DNA from: a virus
Strand: one strand, 5' to 3'
Length of the DNA: 64,000 bases
Virus record (IMG/VR): IMGVR_UViG_641228504_000001
The notes below the pieces were generated by a model that made no database searches, was not told the origin of the DNA, and was given only the letters and a program-made list of their open reading frames with translations. Position numbers and translations under genes: made by a program. Positions 1-45,934 of this stretch are shown piece after piece (within the stretch, counting starts at the first letter, position 1; the number at the start of each line of letters is the position of its first letter).

Positions 1-425
1 ATGGCCCGCGGGCCTCGAGGTTCGCCGTCCTCGAGTAACTCCACGACCATGCCGTCGGATACGACAAGGCCGAGCAGCTGCGCCAGATCCGCCCCGGACC
101 GTGCGGCCTGCAGGGTCCACCCGGAGGGCAACCCTTCCTGATCTTCAGCGGTGGCTAGACCCATAATCGTCGTGCCGGCAAGCTCCTTGATCGTCACGGA
201 CGTAGCACCGTCGGCGAGGCGGTTCGGGGCAAGCGTGGTGACGAGGCTACCGAGGCGCACCTCGGTGAAACCCCACGAGGTGTGGCCGCGGGAGACAGGC
301 CGTTTAAGGGTGGCGTCTTCGAGGCGTCCGAGCAGGGTGAGGAACCGGTCAAGCACCGCGAGCGCGCGCCGCGCATCTGCCGATCCCTCCGGACCCGGCA
401 GCGTGACCCGCAGTTCCGTGCTCAT
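1..425 (-). CDS. Hypothetical protein, truncated at window edge (MSTELRVTLPGPEGSADARR...)
   Basis: ATG at 425; I translated it manually and it stays open to position 3. Absent from the ORF track because it has no stop in the window. Confidence 0.55.
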   Translation of the reverse strand, partial: MSTELRVTLPGPEGSADARRALAVLDRFLTLLGRLEDATLKRPVSRGHTSWGFTEVRLGSLVTTLAPNRLADGATSVTIKELAGTTIMGLATAEDQEGLPSGWTLQAARSGADLAQLLGLVVSDGMVVELLEDGEPRGPRA

Positions 426-520
426 ACCACCCACCATGTCACAGTCGTCCGACCCGGGGTACCGGCATAACGGCCTACTGTGCCCCGAGGTCACGCGCAG
501 CTCGGAGCGGAAAAACGACA

Positions 521-550
521 GCCCCGCCTGGCCTCACGGCCGGGCGGGGC
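521..550. terminator. Intrinsic terminator hairpin
   Basis: GCCCCGCCTGGCC-TCAC-GGCCGGGCGGGGC after the small-ORF operon; homolog at 9533-9568. Confidence 0.7.
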
Positions 551-608
551 GCTTCGTCGTGTCTGGGGTCAGCGAAGCACAACGCCCCACATGGACCAAC
601 GGCCGGAC

Positions 609-827
609 TCAGGCCCGACCCCGCCGCCGCGGTCGACGTCGACCCGGCCCACACCCCGGCTCCTGACACCCGCAGTACCCACCCGCAAGCCGTAGTAGCT
701 CCTGGTCCCCGGCGCACTGGTGCGTCTTCACCACGATCCCGGGGGCGCAACCCAGGCAGCGCAGCGCCGGATCGACGGCCGGTCCTGGGGGCGGCGCCGG
801 CGGGCTGTCGCCGGTCGCTCCGGTCAC
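609..827 (-). CDS. Small Cys-rich protein (CLGC..HQC..CGC..C), 72 aa
   Basis: GTG overlaps upstream TGA (GTGA); homolog of 9276-9515. Confidence 0.5.
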   Translation of the reverse strand: MTGATGDSPPAPPPGPAVDPALRCLGCAPGIVVKTHQCAGDQELLRLAGGYCGCQEPGCGPGRRRPRRRGRA

Positions 828-943
828 CAGTGACCTTCGTTCAGCCGGTCCGGATCCGGCGGAGGGTTGGGCGGACCATCCTTCCGGATCCGTTGGGGTA
901 GCGGTGGTGGTGGCGGATTGCAACGCCAGGACCGGACACGCAT
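824..943 (-). CDS. Pro-rich microprotein, 39 aa (MRVRSWRCNPPPPPLPQRIRK...HW)
   Basis: AGGGGA RBS 9 nt upstream; GTGA coupling to next ORF; homolog 9142-9279 differs by synonymous changes and an in-frame indel. Confidence 0.5.
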   Translation of the reverse strand: MRVRSWRCNPPPPPLPQRIRKDGPPNPPPDPDRLNEGHW

Positions 944-996
944 GACAGGACATCCCCTTCCAGTTATCGGACGAGTGAGGGTCGTGGCAGTCGGGC

Positions 997-1227
997 TTAC
1001 TGCCGACCCAGGACGTGCTCAGGTGGCGCCCAATCGCCCTGACCCACCGAGGTCAGGTAGTCGTAGGCGTAGCCGGTGGGCCTGCAGGGCCACTCGGATC
1101 CGCACATCGGGCATCGGTCCACACGTGGCCAGTGTTCGACGATGATCCTGCGGGCGGACCGGATCATCCGGTTGCGTAGCTGCGCTGGCGACAGGCCAAT
1201 CGGAGTAGGCCGGACGTGGGCGGCCAT
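997..1227 (-). CDS. Small protein with CPxC..WPC putative Zn-binding motif, 76 aa
   Basis: Conserved with 8864-9097; start overlaps upstream stop. Confidence 0.65.
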   Translation of the reverse strand: MAAHVRPTPIGLSPAQLRNRMIRSARRIIVEHWPRVDRCPMCGSEWPCRPTGYAYDYLTSVGQGDWAPPEHVLGRQ

Positions 1228-1409
1228 CACCGGGAGCAGGCCCGCTGCCGGGCCAACCGGGTCATCAACGGCCGCGTATCCAGGATCACCGTCGGCTGGT
1301 CGCGCAGCGGCCGGTAGGCACCGGCCCGCCCGGCGTACACGGTGGCGGGACCGGTGGCGTCCAGCCGCGCGGAACGACGGCGTCGGCGTTGGCGGAACAG
1401 CCGGAACAT
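1227..1409 (-). CDS. Arg-rich microprotein, 60 aa (MFRLFRQRRRRR...)
   Basis: GGAGG RBS; near-identical homolog at 8688-8867. Confidence 0.6.
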   Translation of the reverse strand: MFRLFRQRRRRRSARLDATGPATVYAGRAGAYRPLRDQPTVILDTRPLMTRLARQRACSR

Positions 1410-1559
1410 GCGCTGCGCACCTCCTACGAGTCGGAGTGCCGCCCGGCCAGGCATCGGGGGAAGCCAGCCAGGCGACACACACGCAACGTAGGTGCGGCGA
1501 AGGCGCACAGTAGCCACGAAGTGTGGTGGTACCCCGCGGTGTGGTACCCGCTTGTCAGA

Positions 1560-2768
1560 TCAGGCGACCCCGACCTGATCGGCCAGACTCCGAAGCTCTG
1601 GCCGGGTCGTCGGAGTCTCCCGAGCCAGAAGCTCTCGCAGCAACGCCCGCATAGTCAGGCTTAGCCGGGAATCCTCGGGTGACTCCTGGTGTGCGCGGCT
1701 CAACATGAGCGAGGCGGCCACGTCGTCGCGTTGCGTGGCGTACCCACGCGCCAGGTGCAGCAGGTGCGAGTGCCGGCGCTCGATGCTCGGCGATCCAGTC
1801 ACGTCGACCCGCTCGCCCAACTTGAGCGCCTCACCATGCCGCGACAGCTCCAGCGCCACCGCAGCCCGGTGAATCCCGACGTTGATCGGGCCGAAAAACA
1901 GCCAGTGGTGAGACGTTTCCCCGACGACGGCAGCGAGCTTTTCCGCCTCGCTCAGGACCACTGTGGTGTCCCGGTCGTTGTGCAGCCGAGCCGCCTGCAC
2001 AGACAGCAGCAGATTGAGCCCGCCGAGGACAGACAGCCGCACCGGGTCCTGGTCATCGATTGCGCGTAGCTCAGCGATAGCGGACCGGCATAGCTCAGCG
2101 GACTCCTCCGCGTGGCCGCGCATCGACAGCGCCTGGCCGAGGTTCCACGCCCCGGCGCCGCGGTAGATCGGATCGTCGGCGTCACGTGCAGCGGCCAGCG
2201 CCCGATCGGCGGCCACGAGCGCCACGTCATGTGCGCCGATGCGCTTGGCGTAGGAGCGCACCAGGAGATACAGGTCGGCGGAGATCCGCAGCGCGTCACG
2301 CCGTGAGTCGCCGTCGGTGCTGGCGACGGCAGCGGTAACGGCCTGGACGAGGCCGGGCAGGGCAGGGCCGGTGTAGGTGTAACGCTGCCGCGACTGGTGC
2401 CATGTCGTCCACGCCAACCGCACCGCGGCGCGTAGCTCGGGCAGCGGCATCAGCTCGACCTCTGGCGGGCCGTAGGCGTGGATGGCGGCGCGGAGCGGTC
2501 CCACTAACTCGTGGTCCACCGGGTCATCCGGGAGATGACCGACGGGGAGTCCGGTGATGCGGTACAGGTCGCGTACCCGCAGGATACGAGCGATGTCGAC
2601 CCAGTCGGAGAGGGTATTAACGGATCGTTCCCCTGACTCCCACTTACGCCAGGCGGAAACGGTGACGCCCTTGAGTTGGGCACATACTTCTTGTGTCAGG
2701 CCGGCTCGGCGGCGGTAGAGCTTGATGCGTTGGCCGGGGGTCATCCCCGGCTCGATGACGGGGTCCAT
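1560..2768 (-). CDS. XRE-family HTH regulator with helical TPR-like C-terminal region, 402 aa
   Basis: N-terminal HTH (GLTQE..A..GV..S.W.KWESGER); C-terminal F.P.NV..H...ALEL..R.....AR family pattern; GGAGAAGG RBS. Confidence 0.85.
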   Translation of the reverse strand: MDPVIEPGMTPGQRIKLYRRRAGLTQEVCAQLKGVTVSAWRKWESGERSVNTLSDWVDIARILRVRDLYRITGLPVGHLPDDPVDHELVGPLRAAIHAYGPPEVELMPLPELRAAVRLAWTTWHQSRQRYTYTGPALPGLVQAVTAAVASTDGDSRRDALRISADLYLLVRSYAKRIGAHDVALVAADRALAAARDADDPIYRGAGAWNLGQALSMRGHAEESAELCRSAIAELRAIDDQDPVRLSVLGGLNLLLSVQAARLHNDRDTTVVLSEAEKLAAVVGETSHHWLFFGPINVGIHRAAVALELSRHGEALKLGERVDVTGSPSIERRHSHLLHLARGYATQRDDVAASLMLSRAHQESPEDSRLSLTMRALLRELLARETPTTRPELRSLADQVGVA

Positions 2769-3021
2769 AGCCTTCTCCAGGTAGAGGACTGGGCGGCGGG
2801 CCGCCAGCCTCTACCCCGGCGGGCCGCCACAGTCGACGGTACTCCCCGCCCACCAGGTCACGCCGTCAGTAACAGACCGTGTTGTATTGTGGATACCTCG
2901 CGCGCAATAACACGGCCCCGCAATTCTGGCTAGCCTTCAAACCGGTCATTGCTCCGGCCGGAGATACGTGTCGGACATTTAACAAGACACAGAAGACGCG
3001 AATCCCATTCGTGGATATTGC

Positions 3022-3049
3022 TTGTCGATTATCAATCTGGTACTAAACT
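3022..3049 (+). promoter_or_regulatory. Putative housekeeping-sigma promoter TTGTCG-N16-TAAACT
   Basis: In the AT-rich intergenic block; identical in inverted orientation in the prophage homolog. Confidence 0.4.
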
Positions 3050-3222
3050 TGATCCGGCCAAGTGATCATCCGGTGACGGGCCGTCACAACCCAACGTGAC
3101 CCGTTGCGCACCATCACCCCACCCCCGCCCACGACACGCGGCGAGAAGTCTTCCCATTTCATTCGTACACGTGTTCTACTCGCACGCTCCGTTAGGCACC
3201 CGAGGAGGTCATCCACTCCGCC

Positions 3223-3831
3223 ATGCGCAGCCAGCCCACCCGCCACCCATCCCCACCCCTACGCGCCGCGATCTACGGACCCACGCGGCAGATCGGACGC
3301 TGGCAGCCAACCTGCACCGCCTGGTGCACAGACCGCGGCTACGACCTGACGTCCATCGTCGACGAAGACGCCGCCGCCACCCGCTGGAGCGACCTGCTCG
3401 TCATGATGGCCGACGGCGACGTCGACGTGGTCGTGGTGGCCACCCTTGCGGACCTGCCGCCAAAAAGGATGGCCAGAGTCGAGACCATCAACCGGGGGCA
3501 GCCAGCGCGACGGCCAGGACTACGCGCCGTGGTCTACGGCCCGCCCTGGGACGTCAAACGGTGGGGGCGCCGGGGCATGAAGTGGTGTCAGCAGGCGGAG
3601 CTGGACGTTCGCCGCCTCATCGTCGAGACGCCCGCCGCGAGCGAGTGGCCCGGCGTGGTCGAGGGAATGGCCGACGGAACGGTCGACGTGGTGGTGATGG
3701 GCAGTTGGGGTCATCTACCCCCGCATCGCCTGCCACGAATCGAGGTAGCAGGCACCACACCGGCAGGGCTACTGCAACCCCGCCTGGCCCGCTGGTACCC
3801 GATTACAGGTCACTTGCGTCCGTCCGGATAG
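3223..3831 (+). CDS. Protein with two tandem degenerate resolvase-like (serine recombinase fold) domains, 202 aa
   Basis: Internal duplication RAAIYGP...MADGDVDVVVV / RAVVYGP...MADGTVDVVVM; YxRVS catalytic motif absent. Confidence 0.7.
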   Translation: MRSQPTRHPSPPLRAAIYGPTRQIGRWQPTCTAWCTDRGYDLTSIVDEDAAATRWSDLLVMMADGDVDVVVVATLADLPPKRMARVETINRGQPARRPGLRAVVYGPPWDVKRWGRRGMKWCQQAELDVRRLIVETPAASEWPGVVEGMADGTVDVVVMGSWGHLPPHRLPRIEVAGTTPAGLLQPRLARWYPITGHLRPSG

Positions 3832-4098
3832 GACCCTCGGTGGTCGGAGGATGCGGACTATCGGTCAAAGACCCGCTTGACTGGTGCAGGCCTTTTGATC
3901 TAGTAGCACTTTCGGTCACCTCGAACAATACCCAACCGCCAGTTTTACGCACGGTCACTAGAAATGATCGCCGAGTCGGAGTCTGATCAGAGGCCCACCC
4001 CGAAACGCAGAGGCTGGTGGGGATCGAATGGGGAGGGAATAGCTGTGGAGGACCGCAAGCGCGTCACTCACAGTAAGAGCAATGTAGCGCACACCTGT

Positions 4099-4482
4099 GT
4101 GACGGTCGCAGCCATCGCCGGACTCATCCTCTGCGCGAGGTCCCTCCGCCGCACCCTCCAGACCGTCGAGGCTGAAGTCTCAGCCATGCGAACGGACTTT
4201 ACCGACGTGCTGACCATCGCCGATGCTGACGCCGAGCTGCGCCAGCGACGCAACGGCACGTACGTCGGCGCCGACGTCACTCCACTCGTACCAGCGGTTA
4301 GAAGCGGTCCGCCTGGGAGACCCGCCGAGCGGCCCGCTGCGCCCGCTCAACCTGCGCCGACCGGCCATACCGGCGAGGCATCTCCGCCGAGGACCAACCG
4401 AACAGTGCCATCGCGTCGCCCTCGGAACCGCCGGCGTCAGCCCACAGGTGCGCGGCGAGGTGCCGCAGCTTATGAGGGTTGA
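4099..4482 (+). CDS. Hypothetical protein with hydrophobic N-terminus; 3' part overlaps recombinase antisense
   Basis: GTG after the conserved leader; true end uncertain. Confidence 0.35.
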   Translation: MTVAAIAGLILCARSLRRTLQTVEAEVSAMRTDFTDVLTIADADAELRQRRNGTYVGADVTPLVPAVRSGPPGRPAERPAAPAQPAPTGHTGEASPPRTNRTVPSRRPRNRRRQPTGARRGAAAYEG

Positions 4483-5188
4483 TCTTCGGGATCTTCGCCT
4501 CCTCGCAACGGCGTTCCAGCATCTGATACGCACCGGAAGACGTGAGCGCCCCTCCCCGCTCGGCCAGCCACAGCGCCTCAAGTCTGCCCGCATCTCGGTG
4601 CTTGGACCTCACGCGTAGGTAACGATCGATTGCCTGCCCCGTCTTCGCACCGAAGGGCACAGAACGAATCTTGTCGCCCTTGCCATGAAGGGTGACAAGG
4701 TCGTGGCGCATGTCCAGGGCGTCGAGGGTGATACCCACCATCTCTGAGACCCTGGGGGACCCCGCCTCACACCACAACCGGATCATCGCTGTATCGCGAC
4801 GCTCGGTAAAGCCTTTGCCGCCGCATGCCTTAAGCAGCAGCGCCATATGGTCAGCGGGGACAATGGGGATGGGTTTGCTGGTGACAGCGGGCTCGGCGAT
4901 CCGGGCCATCGGGTTACTGTCGACGATCTCCTCCACCTCGCACCACCGATAGAACGCTCGTAGGTTGCGAAACTTCTTGTGCACCGTGGCGCTGGAGTTG
5001 CCGATCTCCTGAGCATCGATTAGGAACTCCTCCACGTCGACGCGAGTAACCTCAGCCAGGTCACGCCCGGAGCAGAACCCGGCGAGTTGGCGCAGGGTGG
5101 TGACGTAGCTGTCGACGGTCTCGGGAGAGGTACGGCGGGCGCGGTGGTACCGCTCATAGGAGGCGATGTGCGTCTCGTTGGCATCCAT
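4298..5188 (-). CDS. Tyrosine recombinase/integrase (XerC-like), 296 aa
   Basis: Catalytic R (PRVSEM), K (GKGDK), HKLRH, GW (Trp for His), Y (RRYG); N-terminal core-binding domain. Confidence 0.92.
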   Translation of the reverse strand: MDANETHIASYERYHRARRTSPETVDSYVTTLRQLAGFCSGRDLAEVTRVDVEEFLIDAQEIGNSSATVHKKFRNLRAFYRWCEVEEIVDSNPMARIAEPAVTSKPIPIVPADHMALLLKACGGKGFTERRDTAMIRLWCEAGSPRVSEMVGITLDALDMRHDLVTLHGKGDKIRSVPFGAKTGQAIDRYLRVRSKHRDAGRLEALWLAERGGALTSSGAYQMLERRCEEAKIPKINPHKLRHLAAHLWADAGGSEGDAMALFGWSSAEMPRRYGRSAQVERAQRAARRVSQADRF

Positions 5189-5297
5189 GGCGGGGCCTCC
5201 CTGGTCGCTACAGCGCTAAGTCAGGGAGGAAAGAATACTCTCCTCCACCATCGCTGTGGCGACCCCCGCCGCCCGATTCGATCTCTATTTGTGCTGG

Positions 5298-5342
5298 TGG
5301 TGGGGCGGGCGGGACTTGAACCCGCGACCGAGGGATTATGAG
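5298..5342 (-). repeat. att core (prophage left junction): 3' half of tRNA(CAT), probably tRNA-Ile2
   Basis: Minus strand CTCATAATCCCTCGGTCGCGGGTTCAAGTCCCGCCCGCCCCACCA: anticodon loop, T-arm and CCA; 5' half absent; repeated at 40424. Confidence 0.9.
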
Positions 5343-5417
5343 ACTCCCGGGTAAAGGTGCACGACACTGCACAGCCTACGTATTCGTTAGCCGTGCAGTG
5401 TCAAACAAGGGGGTGCA

Positions 5418-9572: not shown

Positions 9573-9645
9573 CGACCCAACCCCACATACGTGGGGAGCA
9601 TGTCGCGAAGCGACAGTGGGTCATCCCCGCCTATGCGGGGACCAA
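9573..9645 (-). CRISPR. Mini-array 1: two type I-E-like 29-nt repeats with a 15-nt spacer
   Basis: TTGGT-CCCCGC-ATAG-GCGGGG-ATGACCCA / CTGTCGCTTCGCGAC / ATGCT-CCCCAC-GTAT-GTGGGG-TTGGGTCG; 5+6+4+6+8 geometry; first repeat 19/29 identical to the E. coli I-E repeat. Confidence 0.75.
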
Positions 9646-9652
9646 TGAACGG

Positions 9653-9681
9653 AGCGTACCCCCAAGCGTCTCGGCTGTCAG
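9653..9681 (-). promoter_or_regulatory. Putative promoter of mini-array 1, CTGACA-N17-TACGCT
   Basis: Predicted TSS near 9646, at the first base of the upstream repeat. Confidence 0.6.
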
Positions 9682-9728: not shown

Positions 9729-9769
9729 CTATAGCATGCTTGACGTGTAGCTATAGCAGGCTATAGGCT
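9729..9769 (+). promoter_or_regulatory. Promoter TTGACG-N18-TAGGCT with three CTATAG palindromic operator candidates
   Basis: CTATAG at 9729, 9751 and 9761, overlapping the -35/-10 region. Confidence 0.6.
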
Positions 9770-9797
9770 GTTGGTATCCGAGCCACAGGAGGAAGCG

Positions 9798-10682: not shown

Positions 10683-10719
10683 GACAGCCAGACCCCCGAC
10701 ATTCGGGGGTCTGGCTGTC
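10683..10719. terminator. Perfect 17-bp bidirectional hairpin
   Basis: GACAGCCAGACCCCCGA-CAT-TCGGGGGTCTGGCTGTC. Confidence 0.85.
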
Positions 10720-10720
10720 A

Positions 10721-10808
10721 CGATTAACCCACATGCATGGAGAGGTGTCTCCTATAGGAGACGGTATCCGGCCTACGACCGTGACACCTCCACATACGTG
10801 GAGAGGTG
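10721..10808 (-). CRISPR. Mini-array 2: I-E-like 29-nt repeat, 32-nt spacer, degenerate 27-nt repeat
   Basis: CACCT-CTCCAC-GTAT-GTGGAG-GTGTCACG / GTCGTAGGCCGGATACCGTCTCCTATAGGAGA / CACCTCTCCATGCATGTGGGTTAATCG. Confidence 0.75.
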
Positions 10809-10832
10809 GTGCTTCGGCCGTGGTAGCAGTTG

Positions 10833-10851
10833 CCTGCCCCATCGGGGCAGG
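10833..10851 (-). terminator. Hairpin downstream of holin
   Basis: CCTGCCCC-ATC-GGGGCAGG. Confidence 0.5.
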
Positions 10852-10868
10852 GGCGACATGCTCCGACC

Positions 10869-11123
10869 CTACCGCCCCGACACCTCGTACTTCGGCGCGG
10901 CCGGCGTGCCGAGTAGGACGCCCAGCCGTGGCCAGCGTGCCTCGGCCACCCGGACGAGGGCGTAGTAGCCGGCCATCGCCAGCGCCATCACGCCCACGGT
11001 GAGTGCGGTGGACGAGTCGGCGTCGATGACGATGCCCGCCGTCGAGGCCAGCCAGGCGAGCAGGGCGCCGACGGCGGCGGGGACCGCGGTGCGGATCAGG
11101 CTGATCAGGTAGTCGTGGGTCAT
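10869..11123 (-). CDS. Holin, 84 aa
   Basis: Two hydrophobic segments; IRT.VP..VG..L.WL and E.RWP.LG.LLG patterns; lies in the lysis cassette. Confidence 0.75.
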   Translation of the reverse strand: MTHDYLISLIRTAVPAAVGALLAWLASTAGIVIDADSSTALTVGVMALAMAGYYALVRVAEARWPRLGVLLGTPAAPKYEVSGR

Positions 11124-11458
11124 TGAATCTCCTCGTTCGGATAGGACCACTGGCCGCGGCCCTGGCCGTAGGGCACCGCGTACTCGCGGTATGTCTGGCC
11201 GAGCCCGAGGACGAGTAGGTCCACGGTGTCGTCGGGCAGCTCGGCGACGACGCCGTCCGGGCGGGCGGCTGTCTCGTGGGTCACGGTGGGGTCGCTGGCG
11301 CTGGCCACGGTGCGAGGCGTCGGCCCCCACCGCTCGATCACGGCGGGCACCGTCGTGTCGCGGGTGCGGATCACGATGGCGGGCGACACGACGTCGCCGA
11401 GCTGCCCGTTGTCGATCTTCGATTTGTAGTGGACGATGTGGCCGATGGTGGGCGGCAT
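11120..11458 (-). CDS. Conserved phage hypothetical (PTIGHIVHY)
   Basis: GGAGG RBS; coupled to holin. Confidence 0.7.
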   Translation of the reverse strand: MPPTIGHIVHYKSKIDNGQLGDVVSPAIVIRTRDTTVPAVIERWGPTPRTVASASDPTVTHETAARPDGVVAELPDDTVDLLVLGLGQTYREYAVPYGQGRGQWSYPNEEIQ

Positions 11459-11483: not shown

Positions 11484-11783
11484 ATGGATGTGCCGTCACT
11501 GCCGCAGCGACAGCGGCTGCTCCTGGCCGAGCTGTCCGGCGTGGCCCGCCGGCACGGCACCGGCGATCGACGGGACGTGCCCCGCGAGGTGGCGGTTGCC
11601 GCGGTGCGGGCGGTCACCGACGATCCCGTGCTGCTGGGTATCCAGGCCGGGGTGGCGCTGGTGGACCCGCACGGCATCAACCGACCGATCGTGGAGCTGC
11701 TCCAGGCCGCTGGTGCGGACATGACGATCGCGCAGCAGCATGCGGCCGAGGTACGTGAACGGCTCGGCAGAAGCCTGCTGTAG
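11484..11783 (+). CDS. Opposite-strand moron in lysis cassette, 99 aa, unknown function
   Basis: TAGGGT -10 lies 6 nt before ATG; fits exactly in the intergenic gap. Confidence 0.6.
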   Translation: MDVPSLPQRQRLLLAELSGVARRHGTGDRRDVPREVAVAAVRAVTDDPVLLGIQAGVALVDPHGINRPIVELLQAAGADMTIAQQHAAEVRERLGRSLL

Positions 11784-11790
11784 CACGGGG

Positions 11791-12084
11791 TCAGTGCCCG
11801 GCCTGGTCGGCACCGGTGGCCTGGGCGATCCGGTCCACCTGGTCCTTGATCGAGCTGCCGCCGTTGGGGCGCAACTCCTCCAGGGCGTCCAGGCGGCCCT
11901 CGATGCGGACCACCCGGTCCATCAACCCGGGGCGCCCCTTGGAGAGGCCGGGCCGGGGTGGCTCGCCGAGCAGGTCGTCCGCGAGCCTGGCCAGCTTGCG
12001 GCTGGTGGCCAGCGTGCCGCGGACAGCGCGGCGAAGTACCTCGGCAGCGGTGCCGACGGCGGCGATTAAGAGCAGCATCTCCAC
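11791..12084 (-). CDS. Membrane-anchored lysis-cassette protein (PNGGSS motif)
   Basis: N-terminal hydrophobic segment; motif typical of actinophage genes next to the lysin. Confidence 0.65.
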   Translation of the reverse strand: MEMLLLIAAVGTAAEVLRRAVRGTLATSRKLARLADDLLGEPPRPGLSKGRPGLMDRVVRIEGRLDALEELRPNGGSSIKDQVDRIAQATGADQAGH

Positions 12085-35208: not shown

Positions 35209-35480
35209 CGCCCCGCCCCCTCACGGCCGGCGAGCCGCTCCCGCGCGGCCACCAGACCCACCCGCAGCCGCTGGGAGGTGCTGATCGCCTGGTCCCGGTC
35301 GGCGCAGGCCTGCCGCAGGTCGGCGGACAGACCGCGGGCCAGGTCCCGCCACTGGGCGGCCTGCCGGGTCCGCCGCTCATAGGCGGCCGTCGTGGTGTCC
35401 AGCTCGTCCTTCAGGCGGGCCCGCTCGGCATCCGCCTTATCCAGCTCGGCGGTCAGCTCCCGCACCATGTCGTCAGTCAT
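35205..35480 (-). CDS. Coiled-coil hypothetical, 91 aa
   Basis: ATG overlaps the pentapeptide gene stop. Confidence 0.55.
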   Translation of the reverse strand: MTDDMVRELTAELDKADAERARLKDELDTTTAAYERRTRQAAQWRDLARGLSADLRQACADRDQAISTSQRLRVGLVAARERLAGREGAGR

Positions 35481-36100
35481 CACAGGTCCGCGCCCCACAG
35501 ATTCGCGTCCGTCAGGTCCGCGTCCGTCAGGTCCGCGTCCGTCAGGTCCGCGCCCGTCAGGTCCGCGCCCGACAGGCCCGCGCCCCGCAGATTTGCGCCC
35601 CGCAGATTTGCGCCCGACAGGTCCGCGTCCCACAGGCCCGCGCCCCGCAGATTTGCGCCCGACAGGTCCGCGCCCCGCAGATTTGCGCCCCACAGGTCCG
35701 CGTCCCGCAGGTTCGCGCCGCAGCCGTGCTCACGGACCAGACGCGCGCCATCCACGATGTCCACGACGTACGCCCGCCTCAGCCGCCACGTATCCCCGCA
35801 GGCGTCGGAGAGCAGGTCAGCGGTCGACCACGCGCACAGCAGCAGAGTCACCGCCGGCACACAGCCGGAGGCCATCGCCCTCCAGGTCCGCGCCAGACAG
35901 ATTCCGTCCCCGGGTGAGGTCGGGGACTCGCTGGTGTTGTCGGTGTCGATCGGCCCCGGCGCGTGAGCCCACTGGCTGGGCCCAGGCCACCGGTACGCGT
36001 GCTGCGAGCGCAGATCGGCGGTGACGGTGCGGATCCCCCACCGGTCGCAGCCGGCAGGCAGAGCGCGGTCGGCAGTCAGGACATCAAGCAAGCTCTTCAC
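35480..36100 (-). CDS. Pentapeptide-repeat protein with N-terminal domain, 206 aa
   Basis: C-terminal run of A(D/N/G)Lxx repeats; GTG overlaps upstream TGA. Confidence 0.85.
35482..35720. repeat. Imperfect 15-bp tandem repeats encoding pentapeptides
   Basis: e.g. CAGGTCCGCGTCCGT tandem copies. Confidence 0.85.
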
Positions 36101-38614: not shown

Positions 38615-39049
38615 GTGGCAGCATCCCCATCCCCTACACCGTCACCCGAGGTCGCGCGAGCGCGCTTCGCAGCCTTCGTCGCCCGTGCTCTGGCATCCGC
38701 AGGCGACCGCGGCATGACCAACAAAGACATCGCGAAGGCAACAGGGGTAGGACCGTCCACGTTCCACCGGTGGCGTCGCGGCGAGGGACGCGAACTACCA
38801 GAGATCGAGAAGGTAAGGGCATTTTGCGCCGGCCTCGGCATCTCCCCCGCCGGTGCGCTCGCCGCACTCGGACTCGATCCCTCTCGCGACGACCCCGAGC
38901 CCGAGCCACCGCTACCACCCGAGGTCCGACAGATCCTCCGGACGCTGGCCGACCCCAACGTCTCGGAGGCAGACAAGCTCGTACTACAGGAGATGCTCAA
39001 GATGCTTGCCGACCGCGCAGACCGCGCCGGACGAGGCAGGGCACCCTAA
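38615..39049 (+). CDS. Immunity repressor (XRE HTH), probably leaderless, 144 aa
   Basis: GMTNKDIAKATGVGPSTFHRW; TACGGT -10 lies 6 nt before GTG; coupled to integrase. Confidence 0.8.
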   Translation: MAASPSPTPSPEVARARFAAFVARALASAGDRGMTNKDIAKATGVGPSTFHRWRRGEGRELPEIEKVRAFCAGLGISPAGALAALGLDPSRDDPEPEPPLPPEVRQILRTLADPNVSEADKLVLQEMLKMLADRADRAGRGRAP

Positions 39050-40386
39050 TGCCCCGCCGCCGGTATCCCACCATTAGCAAAGGCAGTGACGGGTGGTTTC
39101 ATGCCTGGGTCACGGTGGGCACGAAGAGCAACGGGCGGCCCGATCAGCGGCACATCAAACGGGCCACGGTAGAGCAGGTAGAGACACGGATAGACGAGCT
39201 ACTAGAGCAGGCCCGCACTGCTACGGTCCCGCGCGGCGGTCGCGGACCCACCGTTAACACCTGGCTGATCAGTACCTATCTGGAGACAATCGCCCCCGGA
39301 AAGATTGATCCAACGACCGTCCAGGGCTACCGGAGTAAGGTCACAAATTACGTTGTGCCAGTTATTGGTGCCCTTCGGATGGATCGCGTAATAGCTGATA
39401 ACATCGATGCCGTTTACACAGAGATGCGGCGTCGAGGTCTCGCTGATGCCACGGTACTACAGGTCCACCGTATTCTTTCCCGCGCATGGAAAGTTGCCGC
39501 TCGGCGACGTGTTGTGCCACGAAACATCATGCTCGATGTCGACCCGCCAAGTGCAAAGCGTCAAGAGATGGAACCGCTCACGGAAGACGAGGCTAAGGCG
39601 ACGCTGGCGGCAGCCCACCGACGCCGCAACTCGGCCCGCTGGTCCGTCGGGTTCGCGGTTGGCACCCGCCAGGGTGAGGCGCTCGGCCTACGTTGGCCGC
39701 ACCTCCTCGTAGAGTGCGACGACTGCGGGGCAACGGTGAAGTTGGCGGACTGGTGGGCCGGGCAACTGGTGCAGTGCCGAGGCTGCAACTCGGTGAATGT
39801 CGGCGCCGTCGCCCGGATCTGGTGGCAGCTTCACCGGCGAGCGCACGAACACGGCTGCGCTCCTCAGGCCCCATGGCCTTGTGGTCGACGTCGTGGCGGC
39901 AACTGCCCAAACAAACGACTGGTCCTGCGATCGGGCGAGATTCACGTCGGCGGCGGACTGATTCTTAAGGAACCCAAGGGAAAGAGCAAGCGGACCATTC
40001 CGATCCCGCAGGAACTTGTCGATAGCCTCCGAGCGCACTACGAAGTGCAGAACTTGGAGCGAATGGTGGCTGAGGCTGCATACGCCTCGCATGGCTTCGT
40101 CTTCGCCGACCAGCTCGGCGGCCCGATCGACCCAGCCGAAGACTGGCGGGAGTGGAAGACCCTAATCGCGGATGCCGGCGTACGGGACGCTCGGGTGCAT
40201 GACGGCCGGCATACTGCGGCAACGCTGCTTCTCGCTCAGGGAGTCGACATCCGGGTGGTCCAGGAGCTGCTTGGGCACTCCTCGATCAAGGTCACCGAGG
40301 GATACACCCACGTCGCCTCGAAGCTGGCCCGGGACGCTACGGAGCGTATGGGAAAGCGGCTGTTCGGAACGCCAGGTACACCCTGA
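39049..40386 (+). CDS. int: Phage tyrosine integrase with Cys-rich insertions, 445 aa
   Basis: GTRQGEALGL, EPK, HDGRH, LLGH, Y; arm-binding N-terminus; TAATG overlap. Confidence 0.95.
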   Translation: MPRRRYPTISKGSDGWFHAWVTVGTKSNGRPDQRHIKRATVEQVETRIDELLEQARTATVPRGGRGPTVNTWLISTYLETIAPGKIDPTTVQGYRSKVTNYVVPVIGALRMDRVIADNIDAVYTEMRRRGLADATVLQVHRILSRAWKVAARRRVVPRNIMLDVDPPSAKRQEMEPLTEDEAKATLAAAHRRRNSARWSVGFAVGTRQGEALGLRWPHLLVECDDCGATVKLADWWAGQLVQCRGCNSVNVGAVARIWWQLHRRAHEHGCAPQAPWPCGRRRGGNCPNKRLVLRSGEIHVGGGLILKEPKGKSKRTIPIPQELVDSLRAHYEVQNLERMVAEAAYASHGFVFADQLGGPIDPAEDWREWKTLIADAGVRDARVHDGRHTAATLLLAQGVDIRVVQELLGHSSIKVTEGYTHVASKLARDATERMGKRLFGTPGTP

Positions 40387-40423: not shown

Positions 40424-40468
40424 TGGTGGGGCGGGCGGGACTTGAACCCGCGACCGAGGGATTATGAG
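40424..40468 (-). repeat. att core at the tandem junction (reconstituted attP)
   Basis: Identical to 5298-5342; flanked by both phage arms. Confidence 0.9.
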
Positions 40469-40543
40469 ACTCCCGGGTAAAGGTGCACGACACTGCACAG
40501 CCTACGTATTCGTTAGCCGTGCAGTGTCAAACAAGGGGGTGCA

Positions 40544-45808: not shown

Positions 45809-45845
45809 GACAGCCAGACCCCCGACATTCGGGGGTCTGGCTGTC
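45809..45845. terminator. 17-bp hairpin (copy 2)
   Basis: Copy of 10683-10719. Confidence 0.85.
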
Positions 45846-45846
45846 A

Positions 45847-45934
45847 CGATTAACCCACATGCATGGAGAGGTGTCTCCTATAGGAGACGGTATCCGGCCT
45901 ACGACCGTGACACCTCCACATACGTGGAGAGGTG
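45847..45934 (-). CRISPR. Mini-array 2 (copy 2)
   Basis: Copy of 10721-10808. Confidence 0.75.

Follow-up and report, generated by a model that had tools for sequence, protein, structure and literature searches.

Array 2, a minus-strand element downstream of the lysis genes of a Salinispora prophage, is probably a viral Cracr that mimics a CreA-like antitoxin RNA of the host and would direct the host's own Cascade to hold a guard toxin repressed. It lies in a 64,000-nt stretch of DNA (IMG/VR record IMGVR_UViG_641228504_000001), the whole of which we refer to as the window. Cracr RNAs and arrays are viral crRNA-like RNAs that repress Cas or CreT (Liu et al., bioRxiv 10.1101/2024.10.29.618823), and CreTA is the pair formed by a Cascade-repressed toxin and the CreA antitoxin RNA (bioRxiv 10.1101/2024.10.29.618823; 10.1101/2023.03.03.530964). 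As read from the sequence, array 2 appears to have the features by which a Cracr is operationally defined: it is borne by a virus, repeat-like units stand round a guide, the seed of that guide is that of a host guide, and the guide has a partial, PAM-flanked target.

The principle of such mimicry has already been published, and array 2 is a clear new example of it. What is new is a toxin-directed case in type I-E, with an identified target, a candidate peptide toxin and a full-length guide that contains a conserved hairpin. All three members of a CRISPR guard circuit are visible together in the sequences: (i) the host guide, (ii) the PAM-flanked target before the candidate toxin and (iii) several phage mimics. 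Variation within this circuit is confined to the non-pairing sixth positions.

Anatomy and setting of array 2

Array 2 consists of two repeat-like units around a guide, followed by a terminator, all on the minus strand. The first unit, PsiR1 (29 nt, 10780..10808, placed by exact match), is made up of a 5-nt flank, a 6-bp stem (CTCCAC/GTGGAG), the loop GTAT and the 8-nt handle GTGTCACG. The guide, or spacer, PsiS2 is exactly 32 nt long (10748..10779). Its conserved PAM-proximal seed occupies 10766-10779, with the first 14 guide bases reading GTCGT-N-GGCCG-N-AT, and its distal part holds a perfect 16-bp palindrome (10747..10762), identified by inverted-pair detection and RNA folding, which is predicted to form a hairpin in the RNA. 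The second unit, PsiR2 (10719..10747), is degenerate: it is identical to PsiR1 at 20 of 29 positions (17/19 within a common 19-nt core), and five stem pairs are kept only if two G-U wobbles are allowed in the minus-strand RNA. The terminator hairpin (10683..10719) has a 17-bp stem and a 3-nt loop and also ends a convergent Phd-like gene on the plus strand. The 5+6+4+6+8 nt plan of the repeat, the 32-nt spacer and the 61-nt period, which is also the start-to-start spacing of PsiR1 and PsiR2, are those of the host type I-E arrays. This geometry bears out the original prediction of a crRNA-like unit for host Cascade, and the repeat, spacer, degenerate repeat, terminator and palindrome that it listed were all recovered where it had placed them. 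Scans with Rfam and for tRNAs gave no match.

The element sits in a prophage, outside any CRISPR-cas locus, and a tblastn search with seven Cas proteins of the host's variant C system (see below) found no cas genes in the window. Genes of the prophage, which is 35,126 bp long, include those for a tyrosine integrase, a capsid protein, a D5-type primase, an endolysin and a holin. Integration is at the 3' end of a tRNA gene, and the prophage is present as a perfect tandem duplicate, with 5298-28874 identical to 40424-64000. The att core of ~45 bp, derived from the tRNA 3' end (5298-5345 and 40424-40471), joins the two copies beside the integrase gene (38770-40386). The duplication may reflect a true tandem lysogen or arise from assembly. 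The second prophage copy carries an identical array 2 on the minus strand at an offset of 35126 (45809..45934). The repeat core motif occurs four times in the window, where 0.5 occurrences are expected; this corresponds to two per prophage, because the prophage is tandemly duplicated. The full 29-nt PsiR1 sequence has one exact occurrence in each prophage copy.

Elsewhere in the window, about 20 tandem copies of a 15-nt unit (35452-35751) may encode a pentapeptide-repeat protein. The region left of the att core (1-5297), which contains an XRE-family regulator at 1560-2768, is not plain host DNA. Segments of it recur inverted inside the prophage, and many related copies are present in Salinispora genomes.

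Array 2 is located between convergent genes. Upstream on the minus strand are the endolysin gene, a holin-like gene (11791-12084), a frameshifted homologue of phrog_10742 (10869-11458) that is the last late gene before array 2, and a short hairpin; on the opposite side, the Phd-like gene and an HTH gene are oriented towards array 2. Two overlapping frames (11120-11458 and 10869-11330) make up the phrog_10742 homologue, which is indicative of a frameshift. Array 2 had been described as lying just after the holin hairpin, but the nearest upstream gene is the phrog_10742 homologue and not the holin-like gene. The hairpin that separates this gene from PsiR1 (10830..10855, minus strand) is short, rich in G+C and without a T run, and stands where relatives of array 2 have a promoter and a first unit. 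A search for a sigma-70-like promoter for array 2 found none, and the window holds no second match to the spacer; the original prediction had anticipated both the missing promoter and the lack of a target in the phage's own genome. With the Phd-like neighbour as a probe, no relatives were found in IMG/VR. The same prophage carries a companion mini-array, array 1 (9573..9681, minus strand).

The host guide, its target and the phage copies

Three variants of the type I-E repeat occur in Micromonospora, including Salinispora, all with a 61-nt period. Variant C has the stem CCCCAC/GTGGGG and the tail GTGCTCC or GTGTTCC, and its Cas8e cluster includes S. fenicalii, S. arenicola (including CNS-205), S. 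tropica, S. oceanensis and S. pacifica. Units in the relatives of array 2 carry exactly the variant C stem, and the window carries a compensated version of it. PsiR1 is identical to the variant C repeat at 19 of 28 positions, and the window handle matches the host handle at 4-5 of 7. When 185,579 species genomes were scanned for exact occurrences of the stem together with the phage handle, the result was 24 single chance matches and no arrays; the variant C host repeat, whose handle differs from that of the phage, was located through the Cas8e loci. We rejected a canonical type I-E CRISPR array as a description of array 2, since its units are only 20/29 identical, its spacer is inherited in four prophages and no protospacer was found for it in phage records or related prophages.

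A search with the holin-like protein yielded 36 related IMG/VR loci, three of which carry a homologue of array 2; scanning for the exact pattern brought in one more prophage, otherwise unrelated, for a total of four IMG/VR Salinispora prophages. In the relatives, the homologue of array 2 is the last unit of a promoter-driven, multi-unit array closed by a strong terminator. The order of elements in these arrays is promoter, hairpin with a host-type tail, S0 guide, two adjacent hairpins, S2 guide, last hairpin and terminator. The promoter is conserved (TTGAGC, 17 nt, then TATGGT or TACACT), both guides are 32 nt long, and S2 is the homologue of the guide in the window. The window copy starts at the hairpin that precedes S2 and is without the promoter and S0.

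Among the three versions of S2, positions 1-14 are invariant but for position 6, which is A, T or C. When the three prophage versions are compared with the host guide and the target described below, all 12 pairing positions are invariant and only positions 6 and 12 vary. In type I-E systems, every sixth guide base is flipped out, unpaired and free to vary (bioRxiv 10.1101/2023.03.03.530964, PMC10120712). Because conservation breaks only at guide positions 6 and 12, we interpret the conserved sequence as a guide RNA rather than a DNA operator. The original prediction had named a spacer conserved among relatives as a DNA operator or promoter as the finding that would speak against a crRNA-like role; the spacer is indeed conserved, but the restriction of change to positions 6 and 12 argues for a guide RNA and not for the operator. 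All versions of S2 are 32 nt long although one insertion and one deletion have occurred, and the relatives retain the distal hairpin as a 6-bp stem with a 3-nt loop. Judged from these alignments, the spacer of array 2 is evidently inherited rather than acquired.

S0 follows a similar pattern. In two phages its positions 1-19 are identical but for 6 and 12, with complete divergence beyond, and its positions 1-19 match those of the mimicked host guide except at 6, 12 and 18. The repeat-like units have changed in other ways. The PsiR1 stem differs from that of the relatives by one compensated base pair (C-G to U-A); in the PsiR2 stem, two C-G pairs have become U-G and one pair is broken. These changes fit an RNA that would be read from the minus strand, although the covariation spans only four sequences and is not significant (134/500 shuffles).

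The seed of PsiS2, GTCGT-N-GGCCG-N-AT, stands directly after the variant C tail in an S. fenicalii mini-array located in the interval between cas3 and cas8e (L088), which is the only genuine case of the seed following the variant C handle among 275 genomes of the genus. This mini-array has its own promoter and terminator and faces, in convergent orientation, a 34-aa hydrophobic ORF with an RBS. The same guide and module are found in S. arenicola (L137, L139) and S. tropica (L142), and the window guide agrees with the host guide of these three species at 12/12 pairing positions within 1-14. The host target, in S. arenicola and S. tropica, is AAG-flanked and lies directly upstream of the RBS of the 34-aa ORF. 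It is matched by the host guide at 13/13 pairing positions in 1-15 (at all pairing positions up to 15 or 16) and by the window guide at 12/12 in 1-14 (L137, L142). The target has T at guide position 6 and A at position 12, the host guide has C at both, and the phages have A, T or C at position 6 and G at position 12. In S. fenicalii, only a seed-mutated target site is present. Micromonospora sp. NBC_01739 has a homologous module with a different guide and its own AAG target at the same place.

These CreTA-like modules are situated between cas3 and cas8e of variant C type I-E loci in Salinispora and Micromonospora (L137:1139-1395, L142:1151-1395, L088:3560-3935 and L097:10480-10740). Each comprises a crRNA-like mini-array and a convergent hydrophobic ORF of 34-38 aa, with an AAG-flanked partial target in the promoter region of the ORF. 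The CreTA layout is seen in L137, L139, L142 and L097: a guide lies in the cas locus, and its partial target, flanked by a PAM, is at the promoter of the adjacent candidate toxin. We infer that the 34-aa hydrophobic ORF is a candidate toxin, and a type I-E CreTA-like module with a candidate peptide toxin looks undescribed. The guard module is absent from the CNS-205-type, S. oceanensis and S. pacifica loci. Among strains, some have it and others cleanly lack it (L134-L136, L140, L141, L143, L144).

The guide copied by the relatives' S0 belongs to variant B type I-E loci, which have a CreR-like mini-array and an AAG target between cas3 and cas8e. Loci of the CreR-like mini-array and of S0 are L077:7750-7960 (also L089 and L091), L006:6150-6240 and L086:2040-2170. 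In the L006 phage, a second S0-like unit is located ~2.1 kb further on (L085:9542). No guide or target resembling S2 is present in the first six I-E loci, of variants A and B. Searches for the seed throughout Salinispora genomes gave about as many matches as a reversed-pattern control, and the seed pattern with one mismatch gave noise across the genus, including three handle-like matches in coding-looking sequence without repeat structure. One seed match that is conserved in five genomes was set aside as chance; it falls in a nuoH-like coding sequence and has CGG at the place of the PAM. Another genome-wide seed match adjoins apparent DnaA boxes.

Relation to known mimics and guard modules

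Like published Cracrs, array 2 is carried by a prophage outside the cas locus, and the PAM-proximal part of its guide copies a host guide of the CreA/CreR type. The units of its relatives are stacked in one transcription unit, as in Cracr arrays, and its last repeat is degraded, as in the Salmonella type I-E Cracr. The type I-E Cracrs tested in the Cracr paper are CreR mimics that repress the casA promoter, whereas the guide mimicked by array 2 is CreA-like and directed at a small protein ORF. CreT-repressing Cracrs were shown for type I-F in the Cracr paper, whereas array 2 belongs to type I-E; unlike the I-F Cracrs reported there, which have shorter guides, it has a guide of the full 32 nt with a conserved internal hairpin. 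The main text of that paper makes no mention of Salinispora or Micromonospora (bioRxiv 10.1101/2024.10.29.618823).

Viral mini-arrays that match host regulatory mini-arrays have also been described by Shmakov et al. 2023 (bioRxiv 10.1101/2023.03.03.530964, PMC10120712). Array 2 and its host counterpart resemble those viral and host pairs in their high seed identity followed by divergence downstream, and the host type I-E mini-arrays in that study likewise adjoin cas3 and cas8 with an AAG PAM. No target was found there for a pair from Micromonospora sagamiensis and a Saccharomonospora phage, whereas the target of array 2 is identified.

The host element that array 2 copies is laid out like CreTA: inside the cas operon, a guide stands between two degenerate repeats with a terminator after them, and a PAM-flanked site at the promoter of the adjacent small candidate toxin is a partial match to this guide. 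CreTA modules in the Cracr paper are of types I-B and I-F, with RNAs as the I-F toxins; the Salinispora module is of type I-E, and its candidate toxin is a 34-aa hydrophobic peptide with an RBS. A further point of comparison is provided by the Racrs, solitary repeat units that act as RNA anti-CRISPRs (Camara-Wilpert et al. 2023, PMC10651486). Array 2 is, like them, a phage-encoded mimic of a CRISPR repeat that is predicted to engage host Cas proteins, but Racrs act by sequestration and need no guide, whereas the guide is the most constrained part of array 2.

If our interpretation is correct, CreT-repressing Cracrs would extend to type I-E and to actinomycetes, and a CreTA-like module with a small protein toxin would join the known kinds. 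It would also help to explain how Salinispora strains come to carry CRISPR spacers that match their own resident prophages (PMC4223832).

Proposed function and alternatives

In the model that we propose, array 2 would be transcribed on the minus strand. The Cas6e of the host's type I-E (variant C) system would bind the RNA and cut it at the two repeat-like hairpins, and it would be loaded into host Cascade. Bases 1-14 of the guide could then pair with the AAG-flanked site that overlaps the promoter and 5' leader of the 34-aa toxin-like gene. Because pairing would end after ~14-15 nt, Cascade is expected, by analogy with published systems, to sit on the site as a repressor without calling in Cas3. 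The phage would thus supply extra antitoxin RNA, and the toxin that guards CRISPR would stay silent while other anti-CRISPR devices of the phage, for example array 1, deplete or divert Cascade. Incidentally, the RNA of array 2 may also be in competition for Cas proteins with immune crRNAs.

Two features fit this model less readily. The target match does not account for the distal part of the guide with its conserved hairpin, which may limit R-loop extension, stabilize the RNA or bind a protein. Loading into Cascade is not assured either, because the second hairpin is degraded and the handle resembles that of the host at only 4-5 of 7 positions. A broader scheme, which we put forward tentatively and hold to be possible rather than probable, is that type I-E systems of Salinispora are guarded by a CreTA-like module with a 34-aa membrane-peptide toxin, and that the prophages pair a mimic of the antitoxin guide (array 2) with a cas-directed mimic (array 1) as a two-part RNA kit for CRISPR shutdown and suicide defusal. 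In this scheme, the distal hairpin would limit the R-loop or mark the RNA for a phage partner protein.

The main rival is that array 2 is a decaying relic of a functional Cracr array, no longer expressed or processed in the window prophage. Indeed, the window copy lacks the promoter, first unit and second hairpin of the relatives, no promoter of its own was found, and PsiR2 has three stem changes and a diverged handle. The absence of the relatives' promoter and first unit also counts against our model, as do the seed mutation of the S. fenicalii target and the lack of the guard module in CNS-205-type, S. oceanensis and S. pacifica loci. The seed, however, is intact (12/12), the change in the PsiR1 stem is compensated, G-U pairing on the minus-strand RNA is retained by two of the three changes in PsiR2, and the strong terminator is kept, so that we regard a relic as unlikely. 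Considerably less probable is a Racr-like decoy and nothing more, in which the repeat-like hairpins would soak up Cas6e or Cascade subunits and the guide would have no target. Racrs are known (PMC10651486), and two repeat-like hairpins on a phage without cas genes would suit such a role, but sequestration leaves unexplained both the invariance of 12 pairing positions next to change at positions 6 and 12 and the identity of the seed, the most conserved part, with that of a host guide that has a PAM-flanked target. The full-size decoy crRNA that was originally proposed therefore falls short: with a PAM-proximal 14 nt that copies a host regulatory guide whose target is AAG-flanked, array 2 appears to be more than a passive decoy.

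The other function first suggested, a guide against competitor phages, would make array 2 an ordinary phage mini-CRISPR array, with a spacer that turns host Cascade on rival phages or plasmids. Such mini-arrays are known from viruses (PMC6858448) and the spacer has the full length of 32 nt, yet no protospacer was found in 50,697 phage records, in the 36 related prophage loci or in the window, which leads us to disfavor an inter-phage weapon. In BLAST searches of the phage database, the window spacer had no match and that of the relatives only chance-level matches. The spacer is moreover conserved in four prophages as an inherited and not an acquired sequence, and past position 15 it holds a conserved hairpin and no target match; of all the explanations considered, we find this one the hardest to credit. 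An element that acts at the DNA level also appears very improbable, whether the palindrome is taken as an operator for the neighboring HTH protein or the unit as part of a bidirectional terminator region. In 40 kb there are only four occurrences of the motif CTATAG, three in the promoter of the HTH gene (9729-9780) and one in the palindrome (10752-10770), and at both places the 8-mer GGTATCCG follows it after 11-12 nt. The relatives, however, keep the hairpin and not CTATAG, and the palindrome core is different in a relative whose HTH promoter is the same (CTATAG twice, CTATAT once). An operator would also leave the repeat geometry and the seed identity with the host guide unexplained. An operator role may exist but would be secondary, because the relatives do not share the CTATAG/GGTATCCG likeness. 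We also rejected the HTH promoter as a target of the guide, as the similarity requires indels, misses the seed and is absent in a relative.

With no promoter found, read-through from the lysis genes, which the original prediction had already raised, is the likeliest source of any transcript of array 2. Such read-through is possible because the intervening hairpin has no T run, which also counts against a relic. RNA-library contigs from four runs cover array 2, one run having a bridging contig; they are at most weak evidence against a relic, as coverage extends to nearly the whole genome and thus carries no information on expression, RNA ends or strand. Breaks between these contigs coincide with the terminator palindrome. 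At 11553-11579 in the window, the same nine base differences are present in all four RNA-library runs, which suggests a second, slightly different copy or a strain difference.
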